This document shows positions 2,290 to 27,449 of a stretch of DNA of 28,867 bases, in pieces. Both the position numbers and the translations under genes were made by a program. The notes under the pieces were generated by a model. It saw only the letters and a list, made by a program, of their open reading frames with translations. It did no database searches and was not told the DNA's origin. Where the stretch lies: the IMG/VR virus record IMGVR_UViG_2660238462_000003. One strand, 5' to 3'. Each line of letters opens with the position of its first letter. Position 1 is the stretch's first letter. This DNA is from a virus (taxonomy: Duplodnaviria; Heunggongvirae; Uroviricota; Caudoviricetes).

Positions 2290-2511
2290 ATGAATACAGA
2301 ACGGGAAGTCTTTTTTAAATTGTTAGCATGTGCAGAAAGTTCATTAACTTTAAATAATTCAGCAAAAGCAATATTAAATATGTGGCTTGATTGCATAAAT
2401 GACAATGAAGATGCAAATATTGCTTATGGCCTGTTGTCACTTATTGATGAATCAGCAGAAAAACTCAATGACGCAATAAATAGTGCCCTGCTATCAAATA
2501 AGTCGAGTTAA
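2290..2511 (+). CDS. Hypothetical small protein (73 aa), AT-rich codon usage
   Basis: SD GGGGGA upstream; composition markedly more AT-rich than neighbours. Confidence 0.4.
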   Translation: MNTEREVFFKLLACAESSLTLNNSAKAILNMWLDCINDNEDANIAYGLLSLIDESAEKLNDAINSALLSNKSS

Positions 2512-2528
2512 GTCGAGGAATAAATAAT

Positions 2529-4579: not shown

Positions 4580-4589
4580 TTTTTTGTAA

Positions 4590-4815
4590 AAGCCATCTAC
4601 CCCATCTACCTGAACAAAATAAACGCATATTATTCAACATGATAAGTGGGTATAGGGCTAGGTAGAAGGCTAATAAAAGCTCTCTACCTCTTCTACCTGA
4701 TTTTATCAGTTTCAGGTAGCAGGGTAGACGGCAGGTAGAGGAGTCAAAAAGCTATCTACCCGCTGAAAGCCGCGCCATTACTGACATGATGAGCATTCGG
4801 GTAGATGGGTAGAGG
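4590..4815. repeat. Iteron array, putative satellite replication origin
   Basis: At least 11 copies of (A/T)CTACC / GGTAG(A/T) core in both orientations (e.g. catctaccccatctacctga, ctctacctcttctacctga, tcaggtagcagggtagacggcaggtagagg, gggtagatgggtagagg); AT-rich flank; immediately 3' of primase. Confidence 0.6.
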
Positions 4816-4864
4816 GGGGGAGGCACAACTAAAAACTTTTTAAACGAGGGGGGGGTGAAAATAA

Positions 4865-5179
4865 ATGCGCATACATAAAAATCACTTAATAAACATGCCA
4901 GCCGAAAACATGAATCAGGGGCGACAAATGACCAAAATTCGCAGAGACAGAACACAGGCAAAATATAAAGCGTTAGACATGACAGAGCTTTCCTTAAAGG
5001 TGGCAATCAAAGCGATAGACCACCACACACGGGCAGGATACGCGAAGGAACATCCCGACCTGATAAGCGCATTCATGACCACAGCAGCGGCAAACTTTGC
5101 CACGCTGACAGAACGGGAGATTGCCGAAGCGGAACAGGTGACAACCATCAATGTTAAAACCGGAGAGCAGACAGCATGA
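4865..5179 (+). CDS. Hypothetical protein (104 aa; alternative start at 4919)
   Basis: ORF with stop overlapping SSB start; purine-rich SD-like sequence upstream of both candidate starts; G8 tract immediately upstream. Confidence 0.4.
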   Translation: MRIHKNHLINMPAENMNQGRQMTKIRRDRTQAKYKALDMTELSLKVAIKAIDHHTRAGYAKEHPDLISAFMTTAAANFATLTEREIAEAEQVTTINVKTGEQTA

Positions 5180-5625
5180 CAGCACAGATAGCGGCTTACG
5201 GGCGGCTGGTGGCTGACCCGCAGTTAAAGACCACCAGCAAAGGGACACAAATGGCGATGGCGAGTATGGCGGTTCCCCTGCCGTGCAGCCAGGCAGATGA
5301 CGGAACGGCGACGATGTGGTTATCCGTCCTGGCGTTTGGCAGACAGGCCGACGCACTGGCAAAACACCACAAAGGCGAACTGGTGAGCGTGGCGGGTAAC
5401 ATGCAGGTAAGCCAGTGGACAGGCCAGAACGGCGAAACGCGGCGGGGCTGGCAGGTTATCGCAGACAGCGTAATCAGTGCGCGAACGGCGCGACCGGGCG
5501 GCAAAAAAGGCCAACAGGGGCAGGCTACTGACGAACTGAACAGAGCAAAACAACAGGCAGATCAGCAAGGAAGCCAGCCACCAGTGGGAGATAATGAGCA
5601 ATGGGGAGATGATATCCCGTTTTAA
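5176..5625 (+). CDS. Single-stranded DNA-binding protein (SSB-like, divergent)
   Basis: 149 aa; OB-fold-like N-terminus alignable to E. coli SSB, Q/G-rich linker, C-terminal acidic tail ending DDIPF. Confidence 0.75.
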   Translation: MTAQIAAYGRLVADPQLKTTSKGTQMAMASMAVPLPCSQADDGTATMWLSVLAFGRQADALAKHHKGELVSVAGNMQVSQWTGQNGETRRGWQVIADSVISARTARPGGKKGQQGQATDELNRAKQQADQQGSQPPVGDNEQWGDDIPF

Positions 5626-5642
5626 ATATTGCCAATAAAAAA

Positions 5643-5667
5643 GGCCGGAAAAAATAAATTTTCCGGC
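5643..5667 (+). terminator. Stem-loop between ssb-like and capsid genes (possible attenuator)
   Basis: ggccggaaaa-aataaa-ttttccggc inverted repeat; no T-run. Confidence 0.3.
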
Positions 5668-5841
5668 ATGCTACATAAATCCCGACCAAAGGGAGTGAAG
5701 ATATTAACACTAATTGTCCGCACTGAAGTTGTCACCCCAAAACTTTATACAACATTGCACTCGGTTGCATGTGTTCGCATGACAAATATCGGTGGTAGCA
5801 TATATCCACAATTATTTTTAATGAATGCAAAGAGGATGCGT

Positions 5842-6882
5842 ATGGTTGATTTATATTCGCCTACTCAGCTTGTACAGGTGGTTAATGCTGTAGATGTACA
5901 AAAACAACTAAATGCGTTGTTTACCAGTTTGTTTTTTACTCGCTCGGTAATGTTTGAATCGCGCGATATTATTCTTGATACAATCGACGATCCAAATATC
6001 CCAATTGCAGCGTTTTGTTCTCCTATGGTGGGTAGTAAAGTTTCACGTGACGAAGGGTACGAATCAAAAACAATTCGTCCAGGCTATATGAAGCCGAAAA
6101 GCAGCATTGATCCAAATAAGTTAGCTGTGCGCCCTGCTGGTGTATCACCTGAGCAATACAATGCTTTTGGGGCACGTAATATTAAAGTTAAACAGGCGAT
6201 TGTAAATCAGGCTAAAGCTATTCGTGCACGTATTGAATGGCTTGCTGTTCAGGCAATCACAACGGGGAAAAATATCATTGAGGGCGATGGTATTGAACGT
6301 TATGAGCTGGACTGGAATATAAAACCACAAAATATCATCACTCAGTCTGGCGGTACTGAGTGGTCAGGTAAGGATAAAGAAACTTTTGATCCAAATGATG
6401 ATATTGAGAGCTACGCAGAATTTAGTGAGGGCGTCACTAATATCATCATTATGGGTGGTAATGTATGGAAGAAATACCGTTCATTCAGAGCGATAAAAGA
6501 GGCTTTGGATACCCGTCGTGGTTCTAATTCCGAACTGGAAACGGCCCTTAAAGACCTTGGTGATTCGGTGAGTTTTAAAGGGTATATGGGCGATGTTGCG
6601 ATTGTTGTTTACAGCGGGCGTTATACCGACGAGGACGGAACAGAAAAACATTTCCTTGATCCTGATTTGATGGTGCTTGGCAATACGGCTCTTCAGGGGA
6701 TTGTCGCCTATGGCGGTATTCAGGATCCGGAGCTAATCCGAATGGGGCTGACTAAAGCCGAACTTGCACCGAAAAACTATATTGTGCCTGGTGATCCGGC
6801 TATTGAATATGTGCAGACACATTCAGCACCACAGCCAATACCGGCCCGCATCAATCGTTTTGTTACCGTTCGCATTGGCTAA
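5842..6882 (+). CDS. Major capsid protein, lambda gpE family
   Basis: Shared blocks with lambda gpE as recalled: NITQSGGTEWS, DTRRGSNSELETA, GDVAIVVYSG, MVLGNT, PGY.KPK; start chosen at ATG 5842 (SD GAGG 6 nt upstream; ORF opens at 5629); about 347 aa vs 341 for gpE. Confidence 0.85.
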   Translation: MVDLYSPTQLVQVVNAVDVQKQLNALFTSLFFTRSVMFESRDIILDTIDDPNIPIAAFCSPMVGSKVSRDEGYESKTIRPGYMKPKSSIDPNKLAVRPAGVSPEQYNAFGARNIKVKQAIVNQAKAIRARIEWLAVQAITTGKNIIEGDGIERYELDWNIKPQNIITQSGGTEWSGKDKETFDPNDDIESYAEFSEGVTNIIIMGGNVWKKYRSFRAIKEALDTRRGSNSELETALKDLGDSVSFKGYMGDVAIVVYSGRYTDEDGTEKHFLDPDLMVLGNTALQGIVAYGGIQDPELIRMGLTKAELAPKNYIVPGDPAIEYVQTHSAPQPIPARINRFVTVRIG

Positions 6883-6891
6883 GGGGGAGCA

Positions 6892-7233
6892 ATGGCTACT
6901 CATTACACTGAACTCATGGCTGGCACTGAAGCACTGGTGACTACGCTGGGGATATTTTCAGCTAATAAAGGGGTAATTCCTGCATTTACGCCACTGATGC
7001 AGGAAGATGCAACAGGTGCACTGGTGGTATGGGATGGTTCGAGCGTAGGTAAAGCGGTTTATGTTTCCGCTGTACAAATCGACACAGCGAAAAAAACACA
7101 GGCACAGGTTTATAAGACAGGTGTTTTAAATGTTGATGCTCTGAACTGGCCTGAGTCTGTAAAAGAACTGTCGGCAAAGGTTGCCGCGTTTGTTGGCTCA
7201 GGTATTTCTGTTCAGCCGCTGGCTCGTGTGTAA
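6892..7233 (+). CDS. Head decoration protein, lambda gpD family
   Basis: 113 aa; PAFTPLMQEDATGALVVWDGSSVGKAV and WPE...AFVGSGISV align with lambda gpD; strong SD AAGGGGGAG. Confidence 0.7.
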   Translation: MATHYTELMAGTEALVTTLGIFSANKGVIPAFTPLMQEDATGALVVWDGSSVGKAVYVSAVQIDTAKKTQAQVYKTGVLNVDALNWPESVKELSAKVAAFVGSGISVQPLARV

Positions 7234-7244
7234 AGGGGGATACA

Positions 7245-7628
7245 ATGCAGAATCATTACAATGACCTTAAGCCAATTGCCGAAATGATGTATCCGGATCC
7301 AGCAGTAGAGGAATTAAAGGCTATTGCTGACAAAATGCGTTTAAGTGAACGCCTTGTTGATATGAATCAGGTGATGGAACTTACTACCCTTAGCCGTCGC
7401 ACATTGCTAAACCTTGAGGCTAGTGGAGAGTTCCCGGAGCGTGTGCAGGTTACGGAAGGGCGTAAGGCCTGGTATTTAAGTGAAGTGATCGACTGGATAA
7501 ACAATATTCCTCGATCTTCTGAATATTGCCGCGTACCTGTCCCAAAAAAGCCAGATGCGGCGCTATGCCTCAAGATTGAGCGTGTACGTCGCAATGCACG
7601 GGATGGTCGCTATAAGTTGATTGGTTGA
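7245..7628 (+). CDS. AlpA-like winged-HTH DNA-binding protein (second copy) immediately upstream of cos
   Basis: 127 aa; MNQVMELTTLSRRTLLNLEASGEFPERVQV...AWYLSEVIDWI matches AlpA/Xis-like HTH; strong SD AAGGGGGA. Confidence 0.6.
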   Translation: MQNHYNDLKPIAEMMYPDPAVEELKAIADKMRLSERLVDMNQVMELTTLSRRTLLNLEASGEFPERVQVTEGRKAWYLSEVIDWINNIPRSSEYCRVPVPKKPDAALCLKIERVRRNARDGRYKLIG

Positions 7629-7650
7629 TGAAATTAGGGCCCGTTCTGGC

Positions 7651-7830
7651 TGGCGGGTCCTTTCCGGCGATCCGGTAGGCTACGGGGCGGCGACCTCGCG
7701 GGTTTTCGCTATTTATGAGCCTTTTTCGGGTGCTGGTGGTGGTTTTGTTGTTCGCTCTATCTCTATGAATAAAAAGGAAAAGATAAAGCCAATACACCAA
7801 CCTGAAACATTACTTAAGTGGGGATATTGA
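7651..7830 (+). other. Lambda-type cos site (cosQ - cosN - cosB)
   Basis: 7685-7696 GGGCGGCGACCT equals the lambda cohesive end; following CGCGGGTTTTCGCTATTTATGA matches the lambda left end; preceding GGGTCCTTTCCGGCGATCCGGTAGGCTACG closely matches the lambda right end (cosQ); downstream cosB region diverges. Confidence 0.8.
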
Positions 7831-8300
7831 TGAAATCGCACCTGATGAACAAAAAAAACATGGCGCAAAGCTGCCGTGTAAGTGCGACAGCGTTCGACAA
7901 GTGGGGAGTGACTCCCGTTGAACGTAAAGGCCGCGAGGCGTTTTATGATGTTGCCAGCGTAATAGACAATCGGGTTAGCAATGCAATTAACCAGATTACA
8001 GACGACAAAGGCGAGATTGATGATGATGAACTCCTACGAGTCAGGATCAGATTGCTGACAGCACAGGCAGAGGCGCAGGAGCTTAAAAACGAGCGCGAAC
8101 GCGGCGACGTTATTGATACAGCGTTTTGTATATACGTGCTTTCAAAATTGGCGAGTCAGATTTCTTCAATCATGGACAGCCTGCCGCTTGCCATGACAAG
8201 GAAGTTTCCCGACATGAAGCCGTCTATGCTGGATGGACTGAAAAAGAAGTTATCAGAGCCTGTAACGCATGCGCAAAACTTGACGAAAACATACCGCTGA
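7830..8300 (+). CDS. Terminase small subunit, lambda Nu1 family (in-frame part; C-terminal domain continues in -1 frame to 8371)
   Basis: RLLTAQAEAQELKNERERGDVIDTAFCIYVLSKLASQISSIMDSLPLAMTRKFPDMK aligns with lambda Nu1; SD GGGGA 5 nt before ATG 7830; -1 frame 8246-8371 encodes EVIRACNACAKLDENIPLMLSDYLMETAG matching the Nu1 C-terminus. Confidence 0.8.
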   Translation: MKSHLMNKKNMAQSCRVSATAFDKWGVTPVERKGREAFYDVASVIDNRVSNAINQITDDKGEIDDDELLRVRIRLLTAQAEAQELKNERERGDVIDTAFCIYVLSKLASQISSIMDSLPLAMTRKFPDMKPSMLDGLKKKLSEPVTHAQNLTKTYR

Positions 8301-9479: not shown

Positions 9480-9707
9480 ATGTATGCCGCCACCATTGAG
9501 AGTGAGCTGGATACGCAGTCAGCGATGGATTTTATTCTGGGCGCGAACAGTCAGGAGCAGCGGGAAAGGCTGACCGGCTGGATTGGTGAAATTGCCGCGT
9601 ATTACGCCGCAGCGCCGGTCCGGCTGGGAGGCGCAAAAGTACCGCACCTGATGCCGGGGGACTCACTGAACCTGCAGACGGCTCAGGACACGGATAACGG
9701 CTACTCC
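9480..9707 (+). CDS. Hypothetical protein, 3' end lost in scaffold gap
   Basis: ORF MYAATIESELDTQSAMDFILG... running into the N-run; unrecognised. Confidence 0.25.
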
Positions 9708-9717
9708 NNNNNNNNNN
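9708..9717. other. Assembly/scaffold gap (10 N)
   Basis: Run of 10 n characters. Confidence 0.95.
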
Positions 9718-9921
9718 CGCAGCTTTACGCTTGTCTTCTCTTATTTTGAAGTACAGATTCGTCAGGTAAGTCAGAAAGCCCAGAACCAGACTTCCCAGCA
9801 CACCAATAGCAGCCCACTGTGATGGACTGACCTGATCAAGCCACTGTAAAAACCAGTAGCCAGCACTGCCTGCGGAGGTGCCGTAGGCAATGCCCGTTGT
9901 TAACTTGTCCATGGATTTCAT
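9718..9921 (-). CDS. Holin, phage 21 S21 (pinholin)-like; C-terminus truncated by gap
   Basis: [63 protein letters not shown]... matches S21/EssD-type holin; strong SD GGAGGTGAGG. Confidence 0.8.
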
Positions 9922-10294
9922 AGCCTCACCTCCGCAAATAACGGATGGTGTACACGGTTCGGAACGAAGAGGGAAAGGTATAGAAGTTACATTAGCGTAA
10001 GGCCTGAACATCTATTCAAAAAGAAAAACGCCAGCGATTATTCTGGCGTAGCTGAAAGCATCATAAAATTATCAAATACGAAAATTACAAAATCATTAAA
10101 ACGCATCACGTTACATCATGTGTTTTTCTAAAAAAATCTTGATGAATATTTGTGGGGAGGAACACCAAAATATCTTCTGAAAACACTTACAAAATATGAC
10201 GTATTTTCATAACCGCATATCTCAGCAACTTTCCCAACAGAATATAAATTGTAGCTTAATAACCTTTCCGCCATCACCATTCGCTCTTCAAGAA

Positions 10295-11432: not shown

Positions 11433-12392
11433 TTAATTCACCATCAGTCTTAAAGCCAGTTCTTCCGGATAGGGATCGAAGTAATTCTGTGTAAGCAAGT
11501 AATCATTAGGATACTCACCCAGATAATGCTTCAGCAGAGTCAACGGCGCAAGAAGAGGCAATGTGCCAGAACGATAGTTAAGTATAACCTCGCTCAACTC
11601 TTTACGCTGGCGTGTACTTAAGTAGTTACTAAAATACCCCTGTATATGCATCAGCACATTCGTGTGATTTTTACGTGATGCAGGTTTTATGAGAATCGCC
11701 ATCAGCTTATCACGATACACCTCAAAGAATGATTCAAGGTCCGCCCACTCGTGTATTGCAGCCACAAATGGTCCCATATCTTTATAGCCTGCCTGACTAT
11801 GCGCCAACAACTGAAGCTTATAACGACTATGAAAAGCTAATAACTCTCTTCTTGATAATTTCTCCTTGTAAAGGTGATTGAGCTCATGCAAAGCAAAAAC
11901 TCTTTCAACAAAATTCTCACGAAGCACTGGATCATGTAATCGCCCATCCTCTTCAACCGGTAGCCAAGAAAACTTTTCCATCAAAGTGCTCGTAAATAGT
12001 CCCACTCCATCTTTACGACCTCGATTACCATTTTCATCATAGACACGCACGCGCTCCATGCCACAGCTGGGAGATTTAGCACAAACCACAAACCCCGATA
12101 CATCCTTTAATTTGTCCATATAAGAACGACTAAACTCTGTCATTCTCTCTGTCACATCCTCATTCTGGTCGTGGCTGAAACACATCCGTATATTTCCTTG
12201 CGTCGAGCGCACAAGACGTAGAGCAGGACGCGGAACTGGCAGCCCTATAGCCATTTCCGGACATACTGGTCTGAATGTTACCCATTCCACTAATTTGTCC
12301 ATTAAAAAGTCAGCTCTTTTGTGACCACCATCAAAACGAACAGCAGAACCGGCCAAACAACCGCTGATTCCAATCACAGGTTTTTTTATCAT
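11433..12392 (-). CDS. DUF523/DUF1722 (YbgA-like) family protein
   Basis: 319 aa; strong SD GGGGGAGGA; N-terminal Cys-containing DUF523-like region plus C-terminal DUF1722-like region (from memory of family features). Confidence 0.55.
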   Translation of the reverse strand: MIKKPVIGISGCLAGSAVRFDGGHKRADFLMDKLVEWVTFRPVCPEMAIGLPVPRPALRLVRSTQGNIRMCFSHDQNEDVTERMTEFSRSYMDKLKDVSGFVVCAKSPSCGMERVRVYDENGNRGRKDGVGLFTSTLMEKFSWLPVEEDGRLHDPVLRENFVERVFALHELNHLYKEKLSRRELLAFHSRYKLQLLAHSQAGYKDMGPFVAAIHEWADLESFFEVYRDKLMAILIKPASRKNHTNVLMHIQGYFSNYLSTRQRKELSEVILNYRSGTLPLLAPLTLLKHYLGEYPNDYLLTQNYFDPYPEELALRLMVN

Positions 12393-12584
12393 ATCCTCCC
12401 CCTTGACTAATTCATTAACAGATAAACTGTGTAGTGCACGGAATAAATTGCCTTTCTGGCGTCATCACTGACAATTTTTCTGTTATGGACTATTCCTAAT
12501 ATAGTATAAAAGTTCTTTAAGTGATTGGTCGTAATCATCTATCTTTCATACTTACCCTCAACTATCAAAAGTACAGGATTTATT

Positions 12585-13109
12585 ATGAAGTTATGGCCTG
12601 TGTTGACTGGCATTGCACTCTCTTTCACTCTTATAGCATGTAAGGCCCCGACACCACCTAAAGGTGTGCAGCCGATTACAAATTTTGACGCCAACCGCTA
12701 TCTCGGAAAATGGTATGAAATAGCTCGCCTCGAGAACCGGTTCGAACGTGGTCTGGAACAGGTCAGCGCTACTTATGGAAAACGGAACGACGGAGGGATT
12801 CGTGTACTTAACCGTGGATACGATCCAACGAAAAATAAATGGAGCGAGAGCGAAGGTAAAGCATACTTTACTGGAGATACTAAAACTGCAGCGTTGAAGG
12901 TTTCGTTTTTTGGCCCCTTCTATGGTGGCTATAATGTAATCAAACTGGATGATGAGTATAAGTATGCTCTTGTCAGTGGTCCGAACAGAGAATACCTATG
13001 GATTCTGGCAAGGACCCCAACTATTCCAGATAAAGTAAAAGCAGACTATGTGCGAACCGCTCAAAAGCTGGGATTCAATGTCAATGAATTATTATGGGTT
13101 AAACAATAA
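12585..13109 (+). CDS. blc: Outer membrane lipoprotein Blc (bacterial lipocalin)
   Basis: Lipobox LIAC; NFDANRYLGKWYEIARLENRFERGLE...KVSFFGPFYGGYNVI...YLWILARTPTI closely matches E. coli Blc; SD AGGA 6 nt upstream. Confidence 0.85.
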   Translation: MKLWPVLTGIALSFTLIACKAPTPPKGVQPITNFDANRYLGKWYEIARLENRFERGLEQVSATYGKRNDGGIRVLNRGYDPTKNKWSESEGKAYFTGDTKTAALKVSFFGPFYGGYNVIKLDDEYKYALVSGPNREYLWILARTPTIPDKVKADYVRTAQKLGFNVNELLWVKQ

Positions 13110-15408: not shown

Positions 15409-16827
15409 ATGAAATATTTCTCAACTGGTTTTTATGTTTCAAACTCCACATCTCTAGCTGAGATCTTTAATGAATGTTTTTCTTGGGTAAACGACTCACC
15501 ACATACAACTTTTATTCCAGCACAATTAGTATGTGATTATAAAAGCGAGGAGTACTTCATAGAGTCTAAAAATGAAAGAATTGATATAATAACTTATAAA
15601 AACAAAGATACTAGTTTAGGCTGTTTTAGGTATTCGAAAATATCTGAGCCACACAAATGGGTAACAGATATTTCAATTAATAAAAATCTCAAAACTGATA
15701 CCATGTGGATTCAGGTGGAATCTAGCGTTGTAAGCCAAGATGCAGCTTATCTAGCCCCGCAACCTAAGAAACCATTAGTTGTTATGAGATTGATTGATAA
15801 ATTTTCTGGTGGTCTTGATGATATTTTCAAGGTGTCAGTCGAACCTCATTCCTTAGATGATACTGATGAACATTTAAATATAGCAGCTAAAGTTATAAAT
15901 GGTGAAACTGACAACAGACTACCAATAATATACGTTAGCTCCAAGTATTTTTTTAATGAACATGCTCACAATATCATCCCAGAACGCCTTGCAAGAAAGG
16001 TATGCGGATTAGCACATGTATTAATTGAGCCTAGCAATAGACTATTTTCTATTAAGCTAAAAAATGAGACAAATGCTAAAAATGCCTATGCTGGTGCTGT
16101 TGGTATCTATTGGCCACGGGGTCAAAATATCAGTTTTTATCGCCGTGGTGAGAAAACCGCAAAAGAATTTGAAGATGAGTTATTTGATGATGTTGTAAGA
16201 GCTACGACTACAATGGCTCCTGTCTCAGATAGTGGATGGAGTGAGATACAAACCAGAAAAACGAAAGACTCTATTAACTCACTCAAAGAAAGAGGAGAAT
16301 ACACACGCGAACTGATGGCGCTTTACGAAGCCGATAATGTTGCGAAAGATGACCAAATAGAAGATCTTAAGCATAAGATCTCCTCTTTAGAGCACAGAGT
16401 ACGCACTCTTCAATCACAAGCTTCAGCCCAAGGAAGCATTGTGCTTAATGCTGGTGAAGAGACTGATTTTTTTGATGGAGAAATCAAAAATATAATTATT
16501 GACGCACTAAAAACTGCCATAAAAAATAAAAATGAATTTGGTAGAAGCTACCATATCTTATCATCCCTAATTGCCAATAATGAATACAATAAAGAAACCG
16601 AGAGTCGCCGCCAATTACTTAAAAGGACTTTAACAGGTTACAGAAGCATGGATAGCGCAACACAAAGAAATTTAAAGGACTTAGGTTTCAGTGCGTCAAG
16701 CGATGGAAAACACTGGAAGTTAACATATAATGAAGACCCTCGATATTCCTATATTTTACCTAAAACAGGAAGTGACCACAGAGGTTCTTTAAATGCTATC
16801 TCGGATATAGCAAACATTATTTTCTAA
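15409..16827 (+). CDS. Hypothetical 472-aa protein, AT-rich moron between nin region and ren
   Basis: Long ORF with SD AAGGAAA; much lower GC than flanking genes; central coiled-coil-like segment (EDLKHKISSLEHRVRTLQSQ); no recognised motif. Confidence 0.55.
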   Translation: MKYFSTGFYVSNSTSLAEIFNECFSWVNDSPHTTFIPAQLVCDYKSEEYFIESKNERIDIITYKNKDTSLGCFRYSKISEPHKWVTDISINKNLKTDTMWIQVESSVVSQDAAYLAPQPKKPLVVMRLIDKFSGGLDDIFKVSVEPHSLDDTDEHLNIAAKVINGETDNRLPIIYVSSKYFFNEHAHNIIPERLARKVCGLAHVLIEPSNRLFSIKLKNETNAKNAYAGAVGIYWPRGQNISFYRRGEKTAKEFEDELFDDVVRATTTMAPVSDSGWSEIQTRKTKDSINSLKERGEYTRELMALYEADNVAKDDQIEDLKHKISSLEHRVRTLQSQASAQGSIVLNAGEETDFFDGEIKNIIIDALKTAIKNKNEFGRSYHILSSLIANNEYNKETESRRQLLKRTLTGYRSMDSATQRNLKDLGFSASSDGKHWKLTYNEDPRYSYILPKTGSDHRGSLNAISDIANIIF

Positions 16828-17197: not shown

Positions 17198-17485
17198 CTA
17201 CTCTCTTCCATATAAAGCCAACACCCGCTTCATCGCGGCACTTTGACGACACTCCTTAAAAATCAGATTCGTGCTCACCTTTCCTTCCCGTTCTTCTCTG
17301 GTAGCGAACCGGTAATACACCGTTCGCCAGACCTTACCATCAACGACCAGGATTCCTGACCGCGCCATTTTAGCCGCAGCCTGATTTATGCTGGTTACGG
17401 TTGCGCCTGTTACCGCGGCAACGTCCTGCGCACAGAAGTTCTTATGAGTCCCCAGGTAATGAATAATTGCCTCTTTGCCCGTCAT
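17198..17485 (-). CDS. ren: Ren protein
   Basis: MTGKEAIIHYLGTH...VTSINQAAAKMAR...GKVWRTVYYRFATREEREGK... matches lambda Ren as recalled; immediately downstream of P. Confidence 0.8.
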   Translation of the reverse strand: MTGKEAIIHYLGTHKNFCAQDVAAVTGATVTSINQAAAKMARSGILVVDGKVWRTVYYRFATREEREGKVSTNLIFKECRQSAAMKRVLALYGRE

Positions 17486-18183
17486 ACACTTGCTCCTTTC
17501 AGCCCAAACTTCGCTTTGATTTCTGCGATCTTCGCCAGAGCCTGAACACGATTAAGCGGTCTCCCGCCCATGACAGGAAGTTGTTTTACTGGTTCAGGTA
17601 TCGCCTCACCACGGTTAATTCGCGCTGTCATACAGGCCAGTTCATCGGCAGCCTTGCGCCGTAATTCCGCATCAGTCAGCGCATTGGCCCGCATGTTCTG
17701 ATACAGGTTGGTAACCAGCCAGTAGTGCGCGTTTGATTTCCACGGATAAGACTCTGCATCTGGATACAGGCCACGTTTCCGGCAATACTCGTAAACCATA
17801 TCAACCAGCTCGCTGGCGTTTGGCAGCCCGGCGGTAACGGATGCTTCTTCCCGGCACCAGGCAACAAACTGCCCGGGTGATGGCAGGAATGGTCGATTCT
17901 GCCGACGGGCTACGCGCATTCCTGCGTTAACCTGTTCCATCGTGGTGATCCCGTTTTCCCGGAAAGCCAGAACCCACTGGCGGCGGATTTCGTTCAGTTC
18001 GTTCTGGTCCCGGTTAGCCAGGCTCGCCGGGAAAGTTGCCAGTAACTGGCTGAACACACCATTGATGATCTGCGCTACCTGTTGTACCTGCGGCTTTTCG
18101 TCGTACTGTTCCGGCATGTTGTTGGCGATCCGGCGCATCTGCTCACGGTCAAAGTTAACCATCTGTGCGGCGATGTTTTTCAT
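17482..18183 (-). CDS. P: Replication protein P (DnaB loader)
   Basis: 233 aa essentially identical to lambda P as recalled (MKNIAAQMVNFDREQMRRIANNMPEQYDEKPQVQQVAQIINGVF...). Confidence 0.9.
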   Translation of the reverse strand: MKNIAAQMVNFDREQMRRIANNMPEQYDEKPQVQQVAQIINGVFSQLLATFPASLANRDQNELNEIRRQWVLAFRENGITTMEQVNAGMRVARRQNRPFLPSPGQFVAWCREEASVTAGLPNASELVDMVYEYCRKRGLYPDAESYPWKSNAHYWLVTNLYQNMRANALTDAELRRKAADELACMTARINRGEAIPEPVKQLPVMGGRPLNRVQALAKIAEIKAKFGLKGASV

Positions 18184-19109
18184 AAATCCACCCCGTAAAT
18201 CCAGTCAGTGTTTGTCAGGTCGAGTTTTGATTTTCCGGCTATCACGCCAGCCTGTTGCTTGTTACGGTTGATTTCGAGTTGGGTCCACTTGTCGCGGAGT
18301 TTGGCCGGACTTAGCACGTTACCGGACCAGAAGTTGTCCTGGCATGCCCAGCGGAACAGCACGCACATGTCGCGGTGGTTACGGCCGTCACGTTCACGCA
18401 TCAGGCGGATATCGTTAGCCCACCCTGCAAAATTCGGTTTTCTGGCTGATGGCGCGATGGTCTTCACCATGTCAAACATCCACTCTGCGGCGGTCAGGTC
18501 TTCTGCTGTCCCCCACCTGCTGCCGCTCTGAATTGCAGCATCTGGTTTCTCCACAGGAAGATCGTTTTCTGGTTGGTCAGAGGATTCGCCAGAATTCTCG
18601 GACGAAAAAGGTTTTATATTGTCTTTTGTTAGTTTGTATTTTGTGTTTACCTGATTCGGGTAAGTGCCTTTACCTGATTTGGGTAAACTTTTCTTACCTG
18701 ATTCAGGTAAATTTACCTCTTTCAGGTAAACTTTATTTTTCTTACCTGATTCGGGTAATGTTGACCATTCACTGACCACATTATTAATGCCGATATTCCG
18801 CCCGCTCTGAATAAAAATCCCACGCTTTACCAGAACACTTTTTGCAGCAGAACACTTGTGCGGCAATATCCCGGTCAACTCGGAAAGTTGCTCGTTGCTC
18901 ACCCAATCCAGTTTTTTATTAAAGCCATATGTTTTGCGCATGACAGCCAGGAAGACCAGAAGCTGGTGCTGTGTTAATCCGGCCAGCATCACAGCTTCCA
19001 GCAACTCATTTGCAATGCGCGTATAACCATCATCGAGATCTGCCACGCGCGGCTCCTTTTGTGCCGCATCCGGCACTGGAAAATTGAATATCTCAGCAGT
19101 GTTTGCCAT
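18180..19109 (-). CDS. O: Replication initiator O (lambda-like C-terminal domain, different N-terminal DNA-binding domain)
   Basis: C-terminal ...YSSENSGESSDQPENDL...GTAEDLTAAEWMFDMVKTIAPSARKPNFAGWANDIRLMRERDGRNHRDMCVLFRWACQDNFWSGNVLSPAKLRDKWTQLEINRNKQQAG... matches lambda O; start at 19109 (SD GGGAGGA) rather than 19199. Confidence 0.85.
   Translation of the reverse strand: MANTAEIFNFPVPDAAQKEPRVADLDDGYTRIANELLEAVMLAGLTQHQLLVFLAVMRKTYGFNKKLDWVSNEQLSELTGILPHKCSAAKSVLVKRGIFIQSGRNIGINNVVSEWSTLPESGKKNKVYLKEVNLPESGKKSLPKSGKGTYPNQVNTKYKLTKDNIKPFSSENSGESSDQPENDLPVEKPDAAIQSGSRWGTAEDLTAAEWMFDMVKTIAPSARKPNFAGWANDIRLMRERDGRNHRDMCVLFRWACQDNFWSGNVLSPAKLRDKWTQLEINRNKQQAGVIAGKSKLDLTNTDWIYGVDL
18647..18758. 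repeat. ori iterons inside O gene
   Basis: Five 17-bp iterons TTACCTGATTCGGGTAA (variants at 18647, 18670, 18695, 18714, 18742) with an AT-rich stretch alongside. Confidence 0.75.
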
Positions 19110-19195
19110 AATTCCTCCCGCAATGAGTGTGTTACGATTTGCACCTGAAAGTCGGTTCTGTTCCCGCAGACCGACTTTCGCCATTTCTGAACCTG

Positions 19196-19735
19196 TCATA
19201 TTGCCCCCAGCATGGTGGTCACCATCGCCATTAATGGACCAGCCAGATCCGGGTCCACACGAAACATCGACACAATACCTTCACTCATTTCCTTCAGTTT
19301 CTGGTGGCGTGGTGCGTTGAGAATGACAGCCTGTTTTGCCTCACTGAGTTCCTTTTCCATTTCAGCCAACCGAGTCATGAAGCTATCCTGCTCAACCAGG
19401 TAACCGCGATATTCCAGCGGTAGTACCGCCAGAATTGCCGGGGTCAGTTCACGCACGTTATTTCGGTATTTTTCAGAATCGAATTTGTTATCGAGGAAGC
19501 GGAACAGCTTCTGGCGTGCACGGCTGACATCATCAGGGAAATCGATGGTGCCGTCGCCCTGCTCCCGATACTCATTCACAATGAGTGCGGCAACGACATC
19601 CTGATTATCTACAGCCGACCAGGCGCGGACGGCATCACGGATTTTTTCGTGGCCTGGAGCTTGTTTTGTTTGAGAACGATTTATCACCGCAGTCGGAATA
19701 AATCCGCTAGTCTGTTGGTATGTAAGTGGTTGCAT
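19196..19735 (-). CDS. YdaT-like protein in the cII position
   Basis: 179 aa; SD AAGGAG; segment PAILAVLPLEYRGYLVEQDSFMTRLAEMEKEL resembles YdaT-family proteins (recalled, uncertain). Confidence 0.45.
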   Translation of the reverse strand: MQPLTYQQTSGFIPTAVINRSQTKQAPGHEKIRDAVRAWSAVDNQDVVAALIVNEYREQGDGTIDFPDDVSRARQKLFRFLDNKFDSEKYRNNVRELTPAILAVLPLEYRGYLVEQDSFMTRLAEMEKELSEAKQAVILNAPRHQKLKEMSEGIVSMFRVDPDLAGPLMAMVTTMLGAI

Positions 19736-20139: not shown

Positions 20140-20829
20140 ATGAAAACAACACTCTCAGAAAGACTTAAAGAAGCCAGATTAGCGCGAGGCCTTACACAAA
20201 AGGCGCTTGGGGATTTGGTCGGGGTTAGCCAGGCTGCTATTCAGAAAATCGAAACAGGGAAAGCTAACCAAACAACTAAAATCGTGGAGATCGCGAACGC
20301 TTTGGGTGTGCGCGCAGAATGGTTATCTTCTGGCGTTGGAAATATGTCAGACAGTACAGTGCAACCAATACAATCAACTGTCAGCCATTCCAAATACTTC
20401 AAAATTGACGTTCTTGATATAGAAGTCAGTGCCGGGCCAGGTGTAATCAACCGTGAGTTTGTAGAAGTTCTACGCTCGGTTGAGTACTCGTTTGACGATG
20501 CTCGTCACATGTTCGATGGCAGGAAGGCGGAAAATATCCGCATCATTAACGTGCGAGGTGACAGCATGTCAGGGACGATCGAACCAGGTGACCTGCTGTT
20601 CGTTGATATCACTGTTAAATCTTTCGACGGTGATGGCATCTATGCGTTTCTGTACGACGACACTGCCCATGTAAAACGTCTTCAAATGATGAAGGATAAG
20701 CTGCTGGTTATCTCTGATAACAAGAGCTACTCGCCGTGGGACCCGATCGAGAAAGACGAGATGAACCGGGTGTTCATATTCGGTAAGGTCATTGGAAGCA
20801 TGCCGCAGACGTACAGGAAGCATGGTTAA
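20140..20829 (+). CDS. cI: CI-type repressor (XRE HTH + S24 LexA-like peptidase domain)
   Basis: N-terminal HTH LTQKALGDLVGVSQAAIQKIE; C-terminal ...RGDSMSGTIEPGDLLFVD...KRL with Ser/Lys dyad typical of S24 autoproteolysis. Confidence 0.85.
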   Translation: MKTTLSERLKEARLARGLTQKALGDLVGVSQAAIQKIETGKANQTTKIVEIANALGVRAEWLSSGVGNMSDSTVQPIQSTVSHSKYFKIDVLDIEVSAGPGVINREFVEVLRSVEYSFDDARHMFDGRKAENIRIINVRGDSMSGTIEPGDLLFVDITVKSFDGDGIYAFLYDDTAHVKRLQMMKDKLLVISDNKSYSPWDPIEKDEMNRVFIFGKVIGSMPQTYRKHG

Positions 20830-21058
20830 TTTATCTACGACTTAAGGGAGCGAAGGTTAAGGTTTATACCACTCGGATTAGATATTGCACTAAATTCTCT
20901 ATAAGAACGCCAAATCTGTTTGCATATTTCAGTAAATATTCTCGTTGTTAGCTGAGATTTGTTGCTACTGTCAGCAAAATGTCCCCCTATCTCGTAGCGG
21001 TTTTTATTTCGAATCATTATGTTAAGATGTTTCTGATTATAATGAATGGAAACATAAA

Positions 21059-21439
21059 ATGAGAAAAATCCTAATCGCTGCCATGATGGCATCTGTATTG
21101 GCTGGGTGTGCTTCTTCAGGCAACCAGCAACTCAAAAATGAAACTGAAATTAGTGTCCAGTCTAAACTTCAGGAAGGTAAAACAACCAAGAATGAGGTTA
21201 AATCTTACTTTGGTTCTCCTGATGCTGTTTCATATACTGACAGTGGAAACGAGATCTGGAAGTACGCCTTTGCAAAAGTAAAAGTTAATGGCACCACTTT
21301 TATTCCATTCTATGGATTATTCCATAATGGAACGAACGGTACGAAAAAAGAACTTACTATTCTTTTTAACGATGACACGATTAAGAAATACACAATGTCA
21401 GAAACCCAAATAAACTCGAAATCAGGTTGGGCTGACTGA
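21059..21439 (+). CDS. Lipoprotein moron with BamE/SmpA_OmlA-like pattern, in the rex position downstream of cI
   Basis: Signal peptide with lipobox LAGC; KNEVKSYFGSPDAV...GNEIWKYAF...LTILFNDDTIKKY pattern resembles BamE-like fold; AT-rich; terminator follows. Confidence 0.6.
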   Translation: MRKILIAAMMASVLAGCASSGNQQLKNETEISVQSKLQEGKTTKNEVKSYFGSPDAVSYTDSGNEIWKYAFAKVKVNGTTFIPFYGLFHNGTNGTKKELTILFNDDTIKKYTMSETQINSKSGWAD

Positions 21440-21447
21440 TAATCATA

Positions 21448-21475
21448 CCCGGCAACCGCGCCGGGTTTTCTTTTC
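21448..21475 (+). terminator. Rho-independent terminator after lipoprotein gene
   Basis: cccggc-aaccgc-gccggg followed by ttttctttt. Confidence 0.6.
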
Positions 21476-21584
21476 CTCCCCCTCATAACTCATACCGTCC
21501 AAAAAACCACCACACCTCACTTCAGTTATCGCTATGCGATGCAAGTCACAAAATAAATCCATCCTAAATACAACCAGTTATATT

Positions 21585-21650
21585 TAAAACAACCGACAAA
21601 ACAACTTTTGTTGTTGACGATAAAACAACTATAGTTTTAAATTAAATTCA
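21585..21650 (+). promoter_or_regulatory. pL/OL-like promoter-operator
   Basis: TTGACG (21614-21619), 17-bp spacer, TTAAAT (21637-21642); operator-like aacaactatagtttt resembles OR half-sites; aacaacttttgttgtt palindrome. Confidence 0.4.
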
Positions 21651-22504: not shown

Positions 22505-23290
22505 ATGAGTACAGCACTCGCAACGCTGGCTGGGAAGCTGGCTGAACGAGTCGGCATGGATTCTGTCGACCCACAGGAACTGATCACCACTCTTCGCCAG
22601 ACGGCATTTAAAGGTGATGCCAGCGATGCGCAGTTCATCGCATTGCTGATCGTCGCCAACCAGTACGGTCTTAATCCGTGGACGAAAGAAATTTACGCCT
22701 TCCCTGATAAGCAGAACGGCATCGTTCCGGTGGTGGGCGTTGATGGCTGGTCCCGCATCATCAACGAAAACCAGCAGTTTGACGGCATGGACTTTGAACA
22801 GGACAACGAATCCTGCACATGCCGGATTTACCGCAAAGACCGCAATCATCCGATCTGCGTTACCGAGTGGATGGATGAATGCCGCCGCGAACCATTCAAA
22901 ACCCGCGAAGGCAGAGAAATCACGGGGCCGTGGCAGTCGCATCCCAAACGGATGTTACGGCATAAAGCCATGATTCAGTGTGCCCGTCTGGCCTTCGGAT
23001 TTGCTGGTATCTATGACAAGGATGAAGCCGAGCGCATTGTCGAAAATACTGCATACACTGCAGAACGTCAGCCGGAACGCGACATCACTCCGGTTAACGA
23101 TGAAACCATGCAGGAGATTAACACTCTGCTGATCGCCCTGGATAAAACATGGGATGACGACTTATTGCCGCTCTGTTCCCAGATATTTCGCCGCGACATT
23201 CGCGCATCGTCAGAACTGACACAGGCCGAAGCAGTGAAAGCTCTTGGATTCCTTAAACAGAAAGCCACTGAGCAGAAGGTGGCAGCATGA
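22505..23290 (+). CDS. bet: Bet (RecT-family ssDNA annealing protein)
   Basis: 261 aa essentially identical to lambda Bet as recalled. Confidence 0.95.
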
Positions 23291-23967
23291 CACCGGACAT
23301 TATCCTGCAGCGTACCGGGATCGACGTGAGAGTTGTCGAACAGGGGGATGATGCATGGCACAAATTACGGCTCGGCGTCATCACCGCTTCAGAAGTTCAC
23401 AACGTGATAGCAAAGCCCCGCTCAGGAAAGAAGTGGCCTGACATGAAAATGTCCTACTTCCACACCCTGCTGGCTGAGGTTTGCACCGGTGTGGCTCCGG
23501 AAGTTAATGCTAAGGCGCTGGCCTGGGGAAAACAGTACGAGAACGACGCCAGAACCCTGTTTGAATTCACTTCCGGCGTGAATATTACTGAATCCCCGAT
23601 CATCTATCGCGACGAAAATATGCGCACCGCCTGCTCTCCCGATGGTTTATGCAGTGACGGCAACGGCCTTGAACTGAAATGCCCGTTTACCTCCCGGGAT
23701 TTCATGAAATTCCGGCTCGGTGGTTTCGAGGCAATAAAATCGGCTTACATGGCCCAGGTGCAGTACAGCATGTGGGTGACGCGAAAAGATGCCTGGTACT
23801 TTGCCAACTATGACCCGCGCATGAAGCGTGAAGGCCTGCATTACGTCGTGGTTGAGCGGAATGAAAAGTACATGGCGAGTTTTGACGAGATGGTGCCGGA
23901 GTTCATCGAAAAAATGGACGAGGCACTGGCTGAAATTGGTTTTGTATATGGGGAGCAATGGCAATGA
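23287..23967 (+). CDS. exo: Exo (lambda exonuclease)
   Basis: 226 aa essentially identical to lambda Exo as recalled. Confidence 0.95.
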
Positions 23968-24700: not shown

Positions 24701-24922
24701 ATGGCAGACATAATTGATTCAGCATCAGAAATTGAAGAATTACAGCGCAACACAGCAATAAAAATGCGCCGCCTGAACCACCAGGCTATATCTGCCACTC
24801 ATTGTTGTGAGTGTGGCGATCCGATAGATGAACGAAGACGACTGGCCGTTCAGGGTTGTCGGACTTGTGCCAGTTGCCAGCAAGATCTGGAGCTTATCAG
24901 TAAACAGAGAGGTTCGAAGTGA
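24701..24922 (+). CDS. TraR/DksA-family C4 zinc-finger protein
   Basis: 73 aa with CCECGDPIDERRR...CRTCASCQ four-Cys motif. Confidence 0.7.
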   Translation: MADIIDSASEIEELQRNTAIKMRRLNHQAISATHCCECGDPIDERRRLAVQGCRTCASCQQDLELISKQRGSK

Positions 24923-25132
24923 GCGAAATTAACTAGAAGCCAAAGATAAAATCATCGCTGAGCAGGAGAAAATCGCTAACGGAGAAAAGACAGTAAGTCA
25001 GTATATGAAAACCGCATGATATCATCAGATAAAAATCGGTCGTAAAGCGAAATATTAATACCAGAACAAACGAGTCGAGGTAAATTATATTACCTCGATA
25101 AATTAACTAAAACTTGCCCGCTATATACTATA

Positions 25133-25735
25133 TCATTCAGTATCATCACGCGCGGTCTGTGCATATGTCACTACCGCACCTAATATATTAATTTTCTTTT
25201 CAACATAGATAATATTATCGTACTCATAATTGCCATACGGATAGCAAATGCGAATATTCTCATGTAGATCGGGGTCATCCACCTCAGCTCCAGAACAACT
25301 TTTTGAACTACCGGAAGTATACCGATACGGTGCAACGTAAGACGATGTCTCTCCAGGCAAAAAATAAGTTAGTGTCGTAAGGGGTATAATCAGAAAAAAT
25401 CCAGCAAATATGCACATCCCTGCATAAACCTTAAGGTATGCTGACAGACTCTTCCAGCCGCTTTGTTTTACTATCCCCTTCTTAACCCAAAACAGAGATA
25501 ACAGAAAAGCTATTCCCATGCTAAACAGAATGTAATAGTGGGATATACTCTGATTAAGAAACGTGACCCTGTAGATATCTGCCCGCCACCAGAAGAAAAG
25601 GAAAATAAAGATCAGCCCTGAAACTGTCATGCAAATCAAATAAGGATACGAATCTTTTTTCATGTTTAGCGCCCATAAAATTTTTCCTGACCCGGACAAA
25701 TTTACCATCCATTTTTTGCGCAGAAAATAGCTCAT
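25133..25735 (-). CDS. Hypothetical membrane protein, AT-rich moron (start uncertain)
   Basis: Three hydrophobic helices (LICMTVSGLIFIFLFFWW, ILFSMGIAFLLSLFWV, AGMCIFAGFFLIIPLTTLTYF) then Cys/Tyr-rich C-terminal domain; low GC; no convincing SD at any of three candidate ATGs. Confidence 0.45.
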   Translation of the reverse strand: MSYFLRKKWMVNLSGSGKILWALNMKKDSYPYLICMTVSGLIFIFLFFWWRADIYRVTFLNQSISHYYILFSMGIAFLLSLFWVKKGIVKQSGWKSLSAYLKVYAGMCIFAGFFLIIPLTTLTYFLPGETSSYVAPYRYTSGSSKSCSGAEVDDPDLHENIRICYPYGNYEYDNIIYVEKKINILGAVVTYAQTARDDTE

Positions 25736-26134
25736 TACTTACTGCACAATAATACACAAAATTGCGTAAATTTTTTGCATGGATTTTAGCTCTTTCAGCC
25801 GACATTTAAGGGGTAAATAGCATTTCCTAAAAGCAACTGCACCAACCCAACAGAATGGGCTACCGCTTACGTTGAGAGCAAAAAAGTGTATAGCAGCAAT
25901 GAACAGCATCCTCGCACTGACGAGGATTTCTTTTATCTGAACTCGCTACGGCGAGTTTTTTTATGGAGATGATAAATGCACTTCCGAGTCACAGGTGAAT
26001 AGAATGGAGAACCATTCAACAGAGTTATCGAAGCCGAGAACATCAGCGACTGCTATGACCACTGGATGCTGTGGGCGCAGATAGCACATGCAGACGTAAC
26101 CAATATTCGAATTGAAGAACTGAAAGAACACCAA

Positions 26135-26156
26135 GCCGCCTGATGGCGGTTTTTTC
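26135..26156 (+). terminator. Rho-independent terminator upstream of xis
   Basis: gccgcc-tgat-ggcgg followed by T6; preceded by a start-less C-terminal remnant ORF. Confidence 0.5.
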
Positions 26157-26182
26157 TTGCGTGTAATTGCGGAGACTTTGCG

Positions 26183-26401
26183 ATGTACTTGACACTTCAG
26201 GAGTGGAACGCTCGCCAGCGACGCCCAAGAAGCCTTGAAACAGTTCGTCGATGGGTGCGCGAATGCAGGATATTCCCTCCTCCGGTTAAGGATGGAAGAG
26301 AATATCTGTTCCACGAATCAGCGGTAAAGGTTGACTTAAATCGACCAGTAACAGGTAGCCTTTTGAAGAGGATCAGAAATGGGAAGAAGGCGAAGTCATG
26401 A
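26183..26401 (+). CDS. xis: Excisionase Xis
   Basis: 72 aa MYLTLQEWNARQRRPRSLETVRRWVRECRIFPPPVKDGREYLFHESAVKVDLNRP... matches lambda Xis. Confidence 0.95.
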   Translation: MYLTLQEWNARQRRPRSLETVRRWVRECRIFPPPVKDGREYLFHESAVKVDLNRPVTGSLLKRIRNGKKAKS

Positions 26402-27449
26402 GCGCCGGGATTTACCCCCTAACCTTTATATAAGAAACAATGGATATTACTGCTACAGGGACCCAAGGACGGGTAAAGAGTTTGGATTAGGCCGAGACAG
26501 GCGAATCGCAATCACTGAAGCTATACAGGCCAACATTGAGTTATTTTCAGGACACAAACACAAGCCTCTGACAGCGAGAATCAACAGTGATAATTCCGTT
26601 ACGTTACATTCATGGCTTGATCGCTACGAAAAAATCCTGGCCAGCAGAGGAATCAAGCAGAAGACACTCATAAATTACATGAGCAAAATTAAAGCAATAA
26701 GGAGGGGTCTGCCTGATGCTCCACTTGAAGACATCACCACAAAAGAAATTGCGGCAATGCTCAATGGATACATAGACGAGGGCAAGGCGGCGTCAGCCAA
26801 GTTAATCAGATCAACACTGAGCGATGCATTCCGAGAGGCAATAGCTGAAGGCCATATAACAACAAACCCTGTCGCTGCCACTCGCGCAGCAAAATCAGAG
26901 GTAAGGAGATCAAGACTTACGGCTGACGAATACCTGAAAATTTATCAAGCAGCAGAATCATCACCATGTTGGCTCAGACTTGCAATGGAACTGGCTGTTG
27001 TTACCGGGCAACGAGTTGGTGATTTATGCGAAATGAAGTGGTCTGATATCGTAGATGGATATCTTTATGTCGAGCAAAGCAAAACAGGCGTAAAAATTGC
27101 CATCCCAACAACATTGCATGTTGATGCTCTCGGGATATCAATGAAGGAAACACTTGATAAATGCAAAGAGATTCTTGGCGGAGAAACCATAATTGCATCT
27201 ACTCGTCGCGAACCGCTTTCATCCGGCACAGTATCAAGGTATTTTATGCGCGCACGAAAAGCATCAGGTCTTTCCTTCGAAGGGGATCCGCCTACCTTTC
27301 ACGAGTTGCGCAGTTTGTCTGCAAGACTCTATGAGAAGCAGATAAGCGATAAGTTTGCTCAACATCTTCTCGGGCATAAGTCGGACACCATGGCATCACA
27401 GTATCGTGATGACAGAGGCAGGGAGTGGGACAAAATTGAAATCAAATAA
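26379..27449 (+). CDS. int: Tyrosine integrase Int
   Basis: 356 aa matching lambda Int as recalled (MGRRRSHERRDLPPNLYIRNNGYYCYRDPRTGKEFGLGRDRRIAITEAIQANIELF...). Confidence 0.95.
   Translation: MGRRRSHERRDLPPNLYIRNNGYYCYRDPRTGKEFGLGRDRRIAITEAIQANIELFSGHKHKPLTARINSDNSVTLHSWLDRYEKILASRGIKQKTLINYMSKIKAIRRGLPDAPLEDITTKEIAAMLNGYIDEGKAASAKLIRSTLSDAFREAIAEGHITTNPVAATRAAKSEVRRSRLTADEYLKIYQAAESSPCWLRLAMELAVVTGQRVGDLCEMKWSDIVDGYLYVEQSKTGVKIAIPTTLHVDALGISMKETLDKCKEILGGETIIASTRREPLSSGTVSRYFMRARKASGLSFEGDPPTFHELRSLSARLYEKQISDKFAQHLLGHKSDTMASQYRDDRGREWDKIEIK

Follow-up and report, generated by a model that had tools for sequence, protein, structure and literature searches.

The window analysed here is a stretch of 28,867 nucleotides (nt) of Caudoviricetes virus DNA (IMG/VR record IMGVR_UViG_2660238462_000003) and, close to its xis and int genes, it carries an AT-rich island whose minus strand encodes a small membrane protein with three transmembrane (TM) helices. 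On codon-level comparison this gene is real and under strong purifying selection, and alignment with phage lambda indicates that the island is a replacement of the lambda genes ea22 and ea8.5, not a clean insertion. The locus as a whole is, by a modest preference, taken to be an accessory segment of a lambdoid prophage of the phage 434/mEp332 type at attB-lambda. Members of the same protein family are found in P2-like prophages, and we tentatively propose, with less than even confidence, that the gene could be a new single-gene exclusion or defence determinant, exchanged together with an ea22-like gene as a cassette between lambdoid and P2-like phages.

A membrane-protein gene in an AT-rich accessory island

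The longest open reading frame (ORF) at this position in the ORF list, 25133..25735(-), comprises 200 amino acids (aa), and a preliminary description of this DNA had taken it as the gene. The ORF exists, but its first 24 codons are not conserved as coding sequence and all family members start at the equivalent of M25, so that the true gene, as judged from the alignments, is 25133..25663(-), with 176 aa and a start codon at 25663. Homologues from Salmonella, Enterobacter, Klebsiella and Cedecea have 169-180 aa and all begin with MKK(D/Y)SYPYL at the M25 equivalent. In the E. coli P2-like copy (L022), the stretch matching the 24 upstream codons has no ATG and contains an in-frame TAA, while in the Salmonella copies it reads ATG-TAG. 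The 176-aa form is also the one given by NCBI PGAP in strain SCU-113. The ratio of non-synonymous to synonymous substitution rates (dN/dS) was 0.08-0.15 against P2-borne homologues and the O157 allele.

The structure of the product was predicted by hydropathy and with AlphaFold. Hydropathy gave three helices at residues ~30-50, 64-85 and 99-126 (200-aa numbering), and the AlphaFold models agree, with three long helices and a small five-stranded C-terminal β-barrel of ~75 aa (predicted local distance difference test score 87 over the whole protein, 92 over its C-terminal 76 residues). The three hydrophobic helices and the Cys/Tyr-rich tail reported earlier were both recovered: of the 74 residues in the C-terminal tail, 2 are Cys, 9 Tyr, 12 acidic and 6 basic (net charge about -6). 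A strongly basic loop, KKGIVKQSGWKSLSAYLK, connects helices 2 and 3. From the positive-inside rule we infer an N-in/C-out topology in which this loop is cytoplasmic and the barrel periplasmic; hydropathy, the charge distribution and the invariant Cys residues agree with this arrangement. The two Cys and the motif CSGAxVxxPxL...IxICxPxGxY are invariant in the family, and the C-terminal region is probably a small acidic β-barrel in the periplasm, stabilised by a Cys-Cys disulfide.

The prophage is lambdoid and occupies attB-lambda, with the pL direction on the plus strand of the window, and the window ends in host ybhC (27584 onwards), directly after int and xis. The gene order of E. coli AH65 and of O157 strain 9000 matches that of the window, with the same int/xis/ybhC layout. 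The island (24935-25907, ~970 bp) lies between an orf73-type gene, the final conserved gene of the exo-xis region to its left, and the terminator t-L4. Its AT-richness, also reported earlier, was confirmed, with a GC content of 38.3% (24923-25907) against 49.2% in the left flank, 45.9% in xis-int and 46.4% in the whole window. Homology to lambda ends at 24934/24935, after the fifth codon of ea22, and begins again at ~25908 with the t-L4 hairpin. The slot from orf73/ea22 start to t-L4/orf55 is filled differently among related phages: lambda has ea22 and ea8.5 there, and AH65 has cargo of another kind. The membrane gene had been described as next to xis, but it does not adjoin it directly; the double terminator at 25908-25965, orf55 and a hairpin at the t'I position intervene.

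Lambda shares with the window orf60a, orf63, the TraR-like gene, orf55, xis, int, the t-L4 hairpin, the t'I-position hairpin and pI, at 96% identity. It differs in having ea22 and ea8.5 on the pL strand in place of the island, whose membrane gene is antisense to the pL operon, and in having an intact orf55. Much closer counterparts are present in phages 434 (OL657226 CPT_434_36; M60848), mEp332 (PV340541, XSB40999) and 2B8, which carry a 'putative membrane protein' between orf73 and ORF55 that is 99.4-100% identical to that of the window. Orientation, ea22 stub, t-L4 and neighbours are alike, and the identity over a 1.8-kb region is 99.5% with mEp332 and 98% with 434 and 2B8. Unlike the window, these three phages have an intact ORF55 (TGG) and the GGGTTTTGTTTT form of the second terminator hairpin. 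In phage 434 a further gene, ORF114, separates ORF55 from xis; the window lacks it. The 434 int-xis entry of the 1990s, M60848, already contains part of the island, and it annotates t-L4, ORF55, t'-I and the start of a minus-strand 'ORF-22+'. A function is assigned in none of the 434, mEp332 and 2B8 records.

A two-hexamer sigma-70 scan gave no promoter upstream of the membrane gene on the minus strand; the promoter proposal rests on a conserved extended -10 element. The pattern TGnTAA(A/G/T)TT is kept at an equal distance from the ATG in the lambdoid copies, in the E. coli and Salmonella P2-like copies and in the Cedecea chromosomal copies. In the window, TGnTAAATT (25707-25699) is a plausible extended -10, with a predicted transcription start near 25692, 3' of the spurious M1. 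At the other end of the gene, folding of 25060-25135(-) gave -17.6 kcal/mol (z=-2.3), and the hairpin at 25075-25098 is partly kept in the P2-like module. A CII-activated promoter for the membrane gene was also considered: the TTGY-N6-TTGY match at 25746-25759(-), the equivalent of which is annotated in the 434 record, was treated as chance and rejected, since the whole window has 11 such motifs where 7.7 +/- 2.7 would be expected, and the P2-like copies do not keep this one. The 56-aa ORF at 25739-25909 is doubtful as a gene: PHROG, PADLOC and NCBIfam all gave nothing for it, and it is conserved only within this lineage. At its 3' end it runs into the conserved promoter region, and the P2-like copies do not keep its 5' part.

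Taken together, the distinct base composition, the orientation antisense to pL, the conserved promoter-like element, the downstream hairpin, the position in the ea22/ea8.5 slot and the occurrence of the gene in unrelated contexts support the view that the AT-rich unit acts like a moron-type accessory cassette, and the moron reading of the preliminary description was broadly right in this respect.

Gene truncation and the mosaic joint

The same description had proposed that insertion of the moron cut the 5' end off a gene upstream of xis, leaving a start-less remnant followed by a terminator. The frame, which ends in HWMLWAQIAHADVTNIRIEELKEHQAA with a TGA at 26141-26143, does exist, as do the hairpin and T-run after it, at 26133-26152; moreover, from the stop at 26000-26002 onward the frame is open without an ATG until codon 31, and the island boundary is near to it. 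However, an ATG is present at 25976, after GGAG and before the TAG, and the first eight codons, ATG CAC TTC CGA GTC ACA GGT GAA (MHFRVTGE), are intact. Codon 9 is TAG in the window and TGG in lambda, 434, mEp332 and O157, the result of a single G-to-A at 26001. This base is the sole difference between the 168-nt gene and ORF55 of mEp332, and the frame is colinear with orf55 of lambda, 434 and mEp332 but for that one base. The intact ORF55 of mEp332 matches phrog_676 (E=5.5e-40). On alignment, then, the 'start-less' frame is lambda orf55 in full length, start codon and Shine-Dalgarno sequence included, knocked out by one nonsense change.

The position of the joint and the distribution of the allele also stand against the insertion model. 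The boundary of lambda homology at ~25908 is about 68 bp 5' of the orf55 ATG, outside the gene and upstream of the terminator. The island stands beside an intact orf55 in phages 434 and mEp332 and in the O157 prophage, whereas AH65 carries the amber allele (called a pseudogene with 'internal stop' by NCBI PGAP) downstream of DUF2513 and other cargo, with no membrane-protein island. The proposal that insertion truncated orf55 is thus already refuted by the alignments and retains next to no probability. The amber allele was searched for with a 55-mer in which each 28-nt seed covers the mutation; it was found in 30 of 5,426 genomes, and orf55-region homologues in about 2,450-2,680 genomes.

The sequence between the island and orf55 indicates where the amber allele came from. 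The first hairpin of the double terminator (25908-25927) is t-L4 in the 434 record M60848. In the second (25939-25958, followed by U7), a G-to-A at 25954 and a 2-nt deletion produce a perfect 8-bp stem and an unbroken U-run; the corresponding sequence of lambda, 434 and mEp332 has a G.U pair and U4GU4. AH65 has the same perfect form as the window, and the terminator variant is linked to the orf55 amber allele in both. Between 25933 and at least 26190 the window and AH65 do not differ, this variant included, and left of a joint at 25933-25953 it is identical to mEp332 and O157. Both arms are combined in no complete genome, the best full-length match over 25850-26028 being 97.8%. These alignments indicate that the window is a mosaic with a crossover at 25933-25953, inside the shared terminator. 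Since the allele and its linked terminator variant match AH65 beside different cargo, they further indicate that the amber allele arrived by homologous recombination from an AH65-type lineage and not with the island.

The perfect-stem/U7 variant could lower read-through toward xis-int. An Rfam scan of the whole window gave no RNA family above threshold, and a reading of the 25908-25965 double hairpin as a known small RNA was rejected; given the empty Rfam result and the 434 annotation, it is the t-L4 terminator region.

Comparison with lambda and other prophages confirmed the accessory slot, but placed the truncated gene on the opposite, left side of the island. Lambda Ea22 begins VSEINSQ..., and the stub in the window is identical to this ea22 start; the alignment with the ea22 genes of lambda and other phages breaks off at query position 30-31, which is window position 24934/24935. 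The reading frame is broken there, with five codons followed by TAG, and a 3' remnant follows in another frame. At the DNA level the remnant aligns with the 3' end of an Ead/Ea22-like gene that is convergent to the 3-TM homologue in P2-like prophages, and at the protein level its LEAKDKIIAEQEKIA matches LETKDNRIAELEKIA of that gene. A tblastn search against sequenced phages for a longer gene containing the 27-aa left-hand remnant returned the same three phages only, and its origin was traced solely via P2-like prophage loci. These comparisons indicate that the truncated gene is an ea22-like gene left of the island, reduced by an internal deletion to a 5-codon stub and 28 C-terminal codons.

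The P2-like loci resemble the window well beyond the coding sequence. Homology extends ~135 nt upstream of the ATG and, downstream, spans the hairpin into the convergent Ead/Ea22-like gene, which starts MSEINYQALRE...; P2-borne copies whose proteins are 78% and 71% identical to that of the window match it at the DNA level over promoter region, hairpin and ea22-like gene alike. The alignments indicate that the ea22-like gene and the 3-TM gene have passed as a pair between lambdoid and P2-like phages. As ea22 is a gene of the lambdoid exo-xis region, we infer that the exchange ran from lambdoid to P2-like phages.

Distribution of the family and candidate functions

At least 80% of the 1,258-bp segment is contained in 905 of 5,426 complete E. 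coli genomes (~17%), and among sequenced phages there are three distinct carriers only. One of the carrier genomes is O157 strain 9000, the ybhC prophage of which is defective and retains the gene intact. The 176-aa gene is also intact in E. coli SCU-113 (L020, 3552-6031), in a decayed remnant near torI/dsdC, with a frameshifted exo-like gene as one neighbour and an IS4 transposase pseudogene on the other side.

Clustering at 50% identity leaves 62 representatives of the family in a set of 1.84 billion proteins, nearly all of them ~170 aa long and of one architecture. It has no Pfam, NCBIfam or PADLOC model, a Pfam search was empty for 21 family members, and the sole family match was to phrog_1416 (function unknown), over the C-terminal 88 aa. 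Likewise, the BFVD viral structure library and PDB sequence profiles gave no match for the membrane protein. Two long repeat proteins with weak family-profile matches and no informative Pfam domains (P0124, P0131) were rejected as members.

Homologues of 59-78% identity are found in E. coli and Salmonella P2-like prophages between the portal gene gpQ and the replication gene gpA (P0039, P0043, P0048 and P0132), whereas the window copy lies in the lambdoid exo-xis region. The gpA-gpQ locus of P2-like prophages is an anti-phage hotspot (Rousset et al., 2022; PMC9122126), and Table S5B of that study lists a 'System #4' with no Pfam domain, 470 occurrences and 3 TM helices. Over 168 aa the System #4 representative and the window protein share 52% identity (E=5e-57); they are of the same family and each is a single-gene unit, but the slot of System #4 is the cos-proximal hotspot of P2-like phages. 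The family sequence was not found in the table of cloned systems of PMC9122126, and System #4 appears to have been catalogued without a reported phenotype. More distant homologues (42-55% identity, 41-56% GC) occupy phage-free chromosomal sites in Enterobacter, Klebsiella and Cedecea, and their neighbours are not shared.

In the gpQ-gpA hotspot of very common E. coli P2-like prophages (L022/L023; L023 ~4680-5830) the 3-TM gene is convergent with a frameshifted Ead/Ea22-like gene and adjoins a StbA/StbB (ParM-type) partition pair; this locus is DNA-homologous to window 24933-25800. A 112-aa form seen in more than 1,000 contigs was considered as a truncated variant and rejected, the DNA carrying the full 176-codon ORF. 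The 112-aa call starts at an internal GTG after the GAGGGGGG motif (L023 5001-5339, protein P0132), where the window copy has GTA. It may be an artefact of gene calling or else reflect a genuine internal start, which would give a single-TM isoform.

As a guess from context, the most likely function of the protein is superinfection exclusion at the inner membrane or in the periplasm, an assignment that we hold tentatively. An envelope protein acting in phage-phage conflict is favoured because of the antisense autonomy of the gene, its AT-richness, its mobility between two prophage families, its presence in the P2 hotspot and its retention in defective prophages. The gene would be transcribed from its own extended -10 promoter, antisense to pL, and because of this arrangement expression would be expected in a repressed lysogen. 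The envelope protein made by the lysogen would then block other phages at a periplasmic or inner-membrane step. Superinfection exclusion would explain both the travel of a single-gene cassette between lambdoid and P2-like phages and its intact survival in decayed prophages. Inner-membrane superinfection-exclusion proteins of prophages or resident phages include P22 SieA, HK97 gp15 and T4 Imm. The window protein may resemble these in being a small membrane protein of a resident phage, encoded by a single accessory gene and acting at the DNA-entry step; it differs from them in showing no sequence, profile or fold similarity, and membership of this group is unsupported. Nor did it match any defence-system model or other known exclusion protein by sequence or fold, and literature searches on 434 and exclusion, mEp332, exo-xis morons and the accession numbers gave no functional study.

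Several observations weigh against an exclusion function. The P2 hotspot also holds non-defence cargo, e.g. partition systems and the CDT toxin (PMC9122126), and the sequence of the family was not found among the cloned systems tabulated there. The ea22-xis slot was considered as a lambdoid defence hotspot and this was rejected: in the three phages checked, the sole annotated toxin-antitoxin pair (GevAT, in PhiR47_2) lies beside cI and outside this slot, and the other two lambdoid phages have no such pair in the 7 kb read. The promoter and terminator of the membrane gene are predictions, and the T-run after the hairpin is weak. Furthermore, the GC-rich homologues at phage-free sites in Enterobacter, Klebsiella and Cedecea fit a general envelope role equally well.

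Such a role, as a lysogenic-conversion or housekeeping envelope factor (in stress tolerance, membrane homeostasis or colonisation) with a benefit to the host independent of phages, was weighed as an alternative. The GC-ameliorated homologues (52-56% GC) in non-phage contexts in Klebsiella and Enterobacter are consistent with it, as are the intact gene in decayed prophages and its presence in 17% of E. coli genomes. However, no conserved neighbour genes or regulators indicate a pathway, the family is very small, and its enrichment in accessory slots of two phage families fits phage-phage conflict better, so that this alternative is rather unlikely. The architecture of the 3-TM protein resembles that of membrane-anchored colicin immunity proteins. 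It is conceivable, if distinctly unlikely, that the protein is an orphan immunity factor directed not against phages but against an envelope-acting toxin (a colicin, a microcin or an effector of a type VI secretion or contact-dependent inhibition system), as would suit a small protein that crosses the inner membrane several times, has a periplasmic domain with a probable disulfide bond and is encoded by a stand-alone gene scattered in prophages and chromosomal islets of several Enterobacteriaceae. An NfeD-like protein (TM segment and C-terminal OB-fold) partnering a stomatin/flotillin-type protein, or an abortive-infection membrane effector, has a superficially similar architecture of ~3 TM helices and a small β-barrel; the 21 family members gave no Pfam match and no context has an adjacent SPFH gene, and this role is disfavoured and very improbable.

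Other features of the window and significance of the locus

Coordinates of the features in and around the island (strand relative to the window)
Feature	Position	Strand	Evidence or remark
exo	23287-23967		followed rightwards by orf60a, orf63 and orf73
orf73-type TraR/DksA zinc-finger gene	24701..24922	+	Pfam zf-dskA_traR, E=5.1e-9; phrog_54
ea22 5' stub, GTG AGC GAA ATT AAC TAG (MSEIN, stop)	24919..24936	+	lambda homology stops here
ea22-like 3' remnant, LEAKDKIIAEQEKIANGEKTVSQYMKTA, stop	24933..25019	+	28 codons, in a different frame from the stub; convergent with the membrane gene
Hairpin 3' of the membrane gene, candidate terminator	25075..25098	-	9 pairs, tail CTCGTTTGTT, weak T-run
176-aa 3-TM inner-membrane protein gene	25133..25663	-	conserved start, AlphaFold, dN/dS, phrog_1416 on C-terminal 88 aa
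Candidate extended -10, TGGTAAATT	25699..25707	-	~36 nt 5' of M25 ATG; prediction
56-aa ORF ('ORF-22+' in M60848), doubtful gene	25739..25909	-	annotated in 434 and mEp332 records
Double terminator	25908..25965	+	-22.8 kcal/mol, z=-4.0
Homologue of lambda orf55 (lambdap35, phrog_676), pseudogene	25976..26143	+	TGG to TAG at codon 9 (26000-26002; base 26001)
Hairpin and T-run at the t'-I position of 434	26133..26158	+	overlaps orf55 stop; -16.1 kcal/mol, z=-3.0
CII-binding repeat of pI (TTGCGTGTAATTGC)	26157..26170	+	pattern match; agrees with pI annotation in OL657226
xis	26183-26401	+	Pfam Exc, E=3.9e-41
int	26379-27449	+	ORF list; adjoins host ybhC

Further accessory sequence was observed elsewhere in the window. 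A block at 315-8300 (+) resembles a capsid-forming phage satellite of the phage-inducible chromosomal island (PICI) type. It encodes a Bro-N protein, a 356-aa protein with a repressor-like C-terminus, a D5_N/DUF5906 primase-helicase and a major capsid protein E, together with a head-decoration protein, an AlpA-like regulator and a Nu1-like small terminase, and it occupies the place expected for the lambdoid late genes after holin S (9532-10011, -). The late region also contains host-type cargo, namely a 2-thiouracil desulfurase/DUF1722 protein (11433-12392, -) and a lipocalin Blc-like protein (12525-13109, +). At 15409-16827 (+), antisense to the O/P replication genes (17482-19199, -), a 472-aa ORF without a Pfam domain resembles HEC-07, a candidate defence protein, only weakly (PADLOC, E=1e-9) and may be a further defence-type moron. 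Between cI and kil, a 126-aa ORF (21059-21439, +; phrog_3135) sits in a further AT-rich trough (36.7-39.7% GC over 20750-21650); by position alone it was likened to the PhiR26_1 ORF annotated as 'putative lipoprotein'.

The sequence features of the island are real and more than chance, yet they are already in long-known phages, and nothing in them is new as sequence. What the analysis adds is a corrected 176-aa gene model with its start at M25, and the identification of the gene actually gutted, which is ea22-like and lies on the other side of the island from orf55. The orf55 case itself is a textbook lambdoid mosaic joint at a terminator. Moreover, a lambdoid gene is linked to an abundant, uncharacterised single-gene family of the P2-like defence hotspot, and because of this link the family is a cheap candidate for a screen for anti-phage or envelope phenotypes in the model phages 434 and mEp332. 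If the proposed function is true, a new exclusion or defence determinant would explain why ~17% of E. coli genomes contain the gene and why it is the fourth-commonest cargo of the P2 hotspot.

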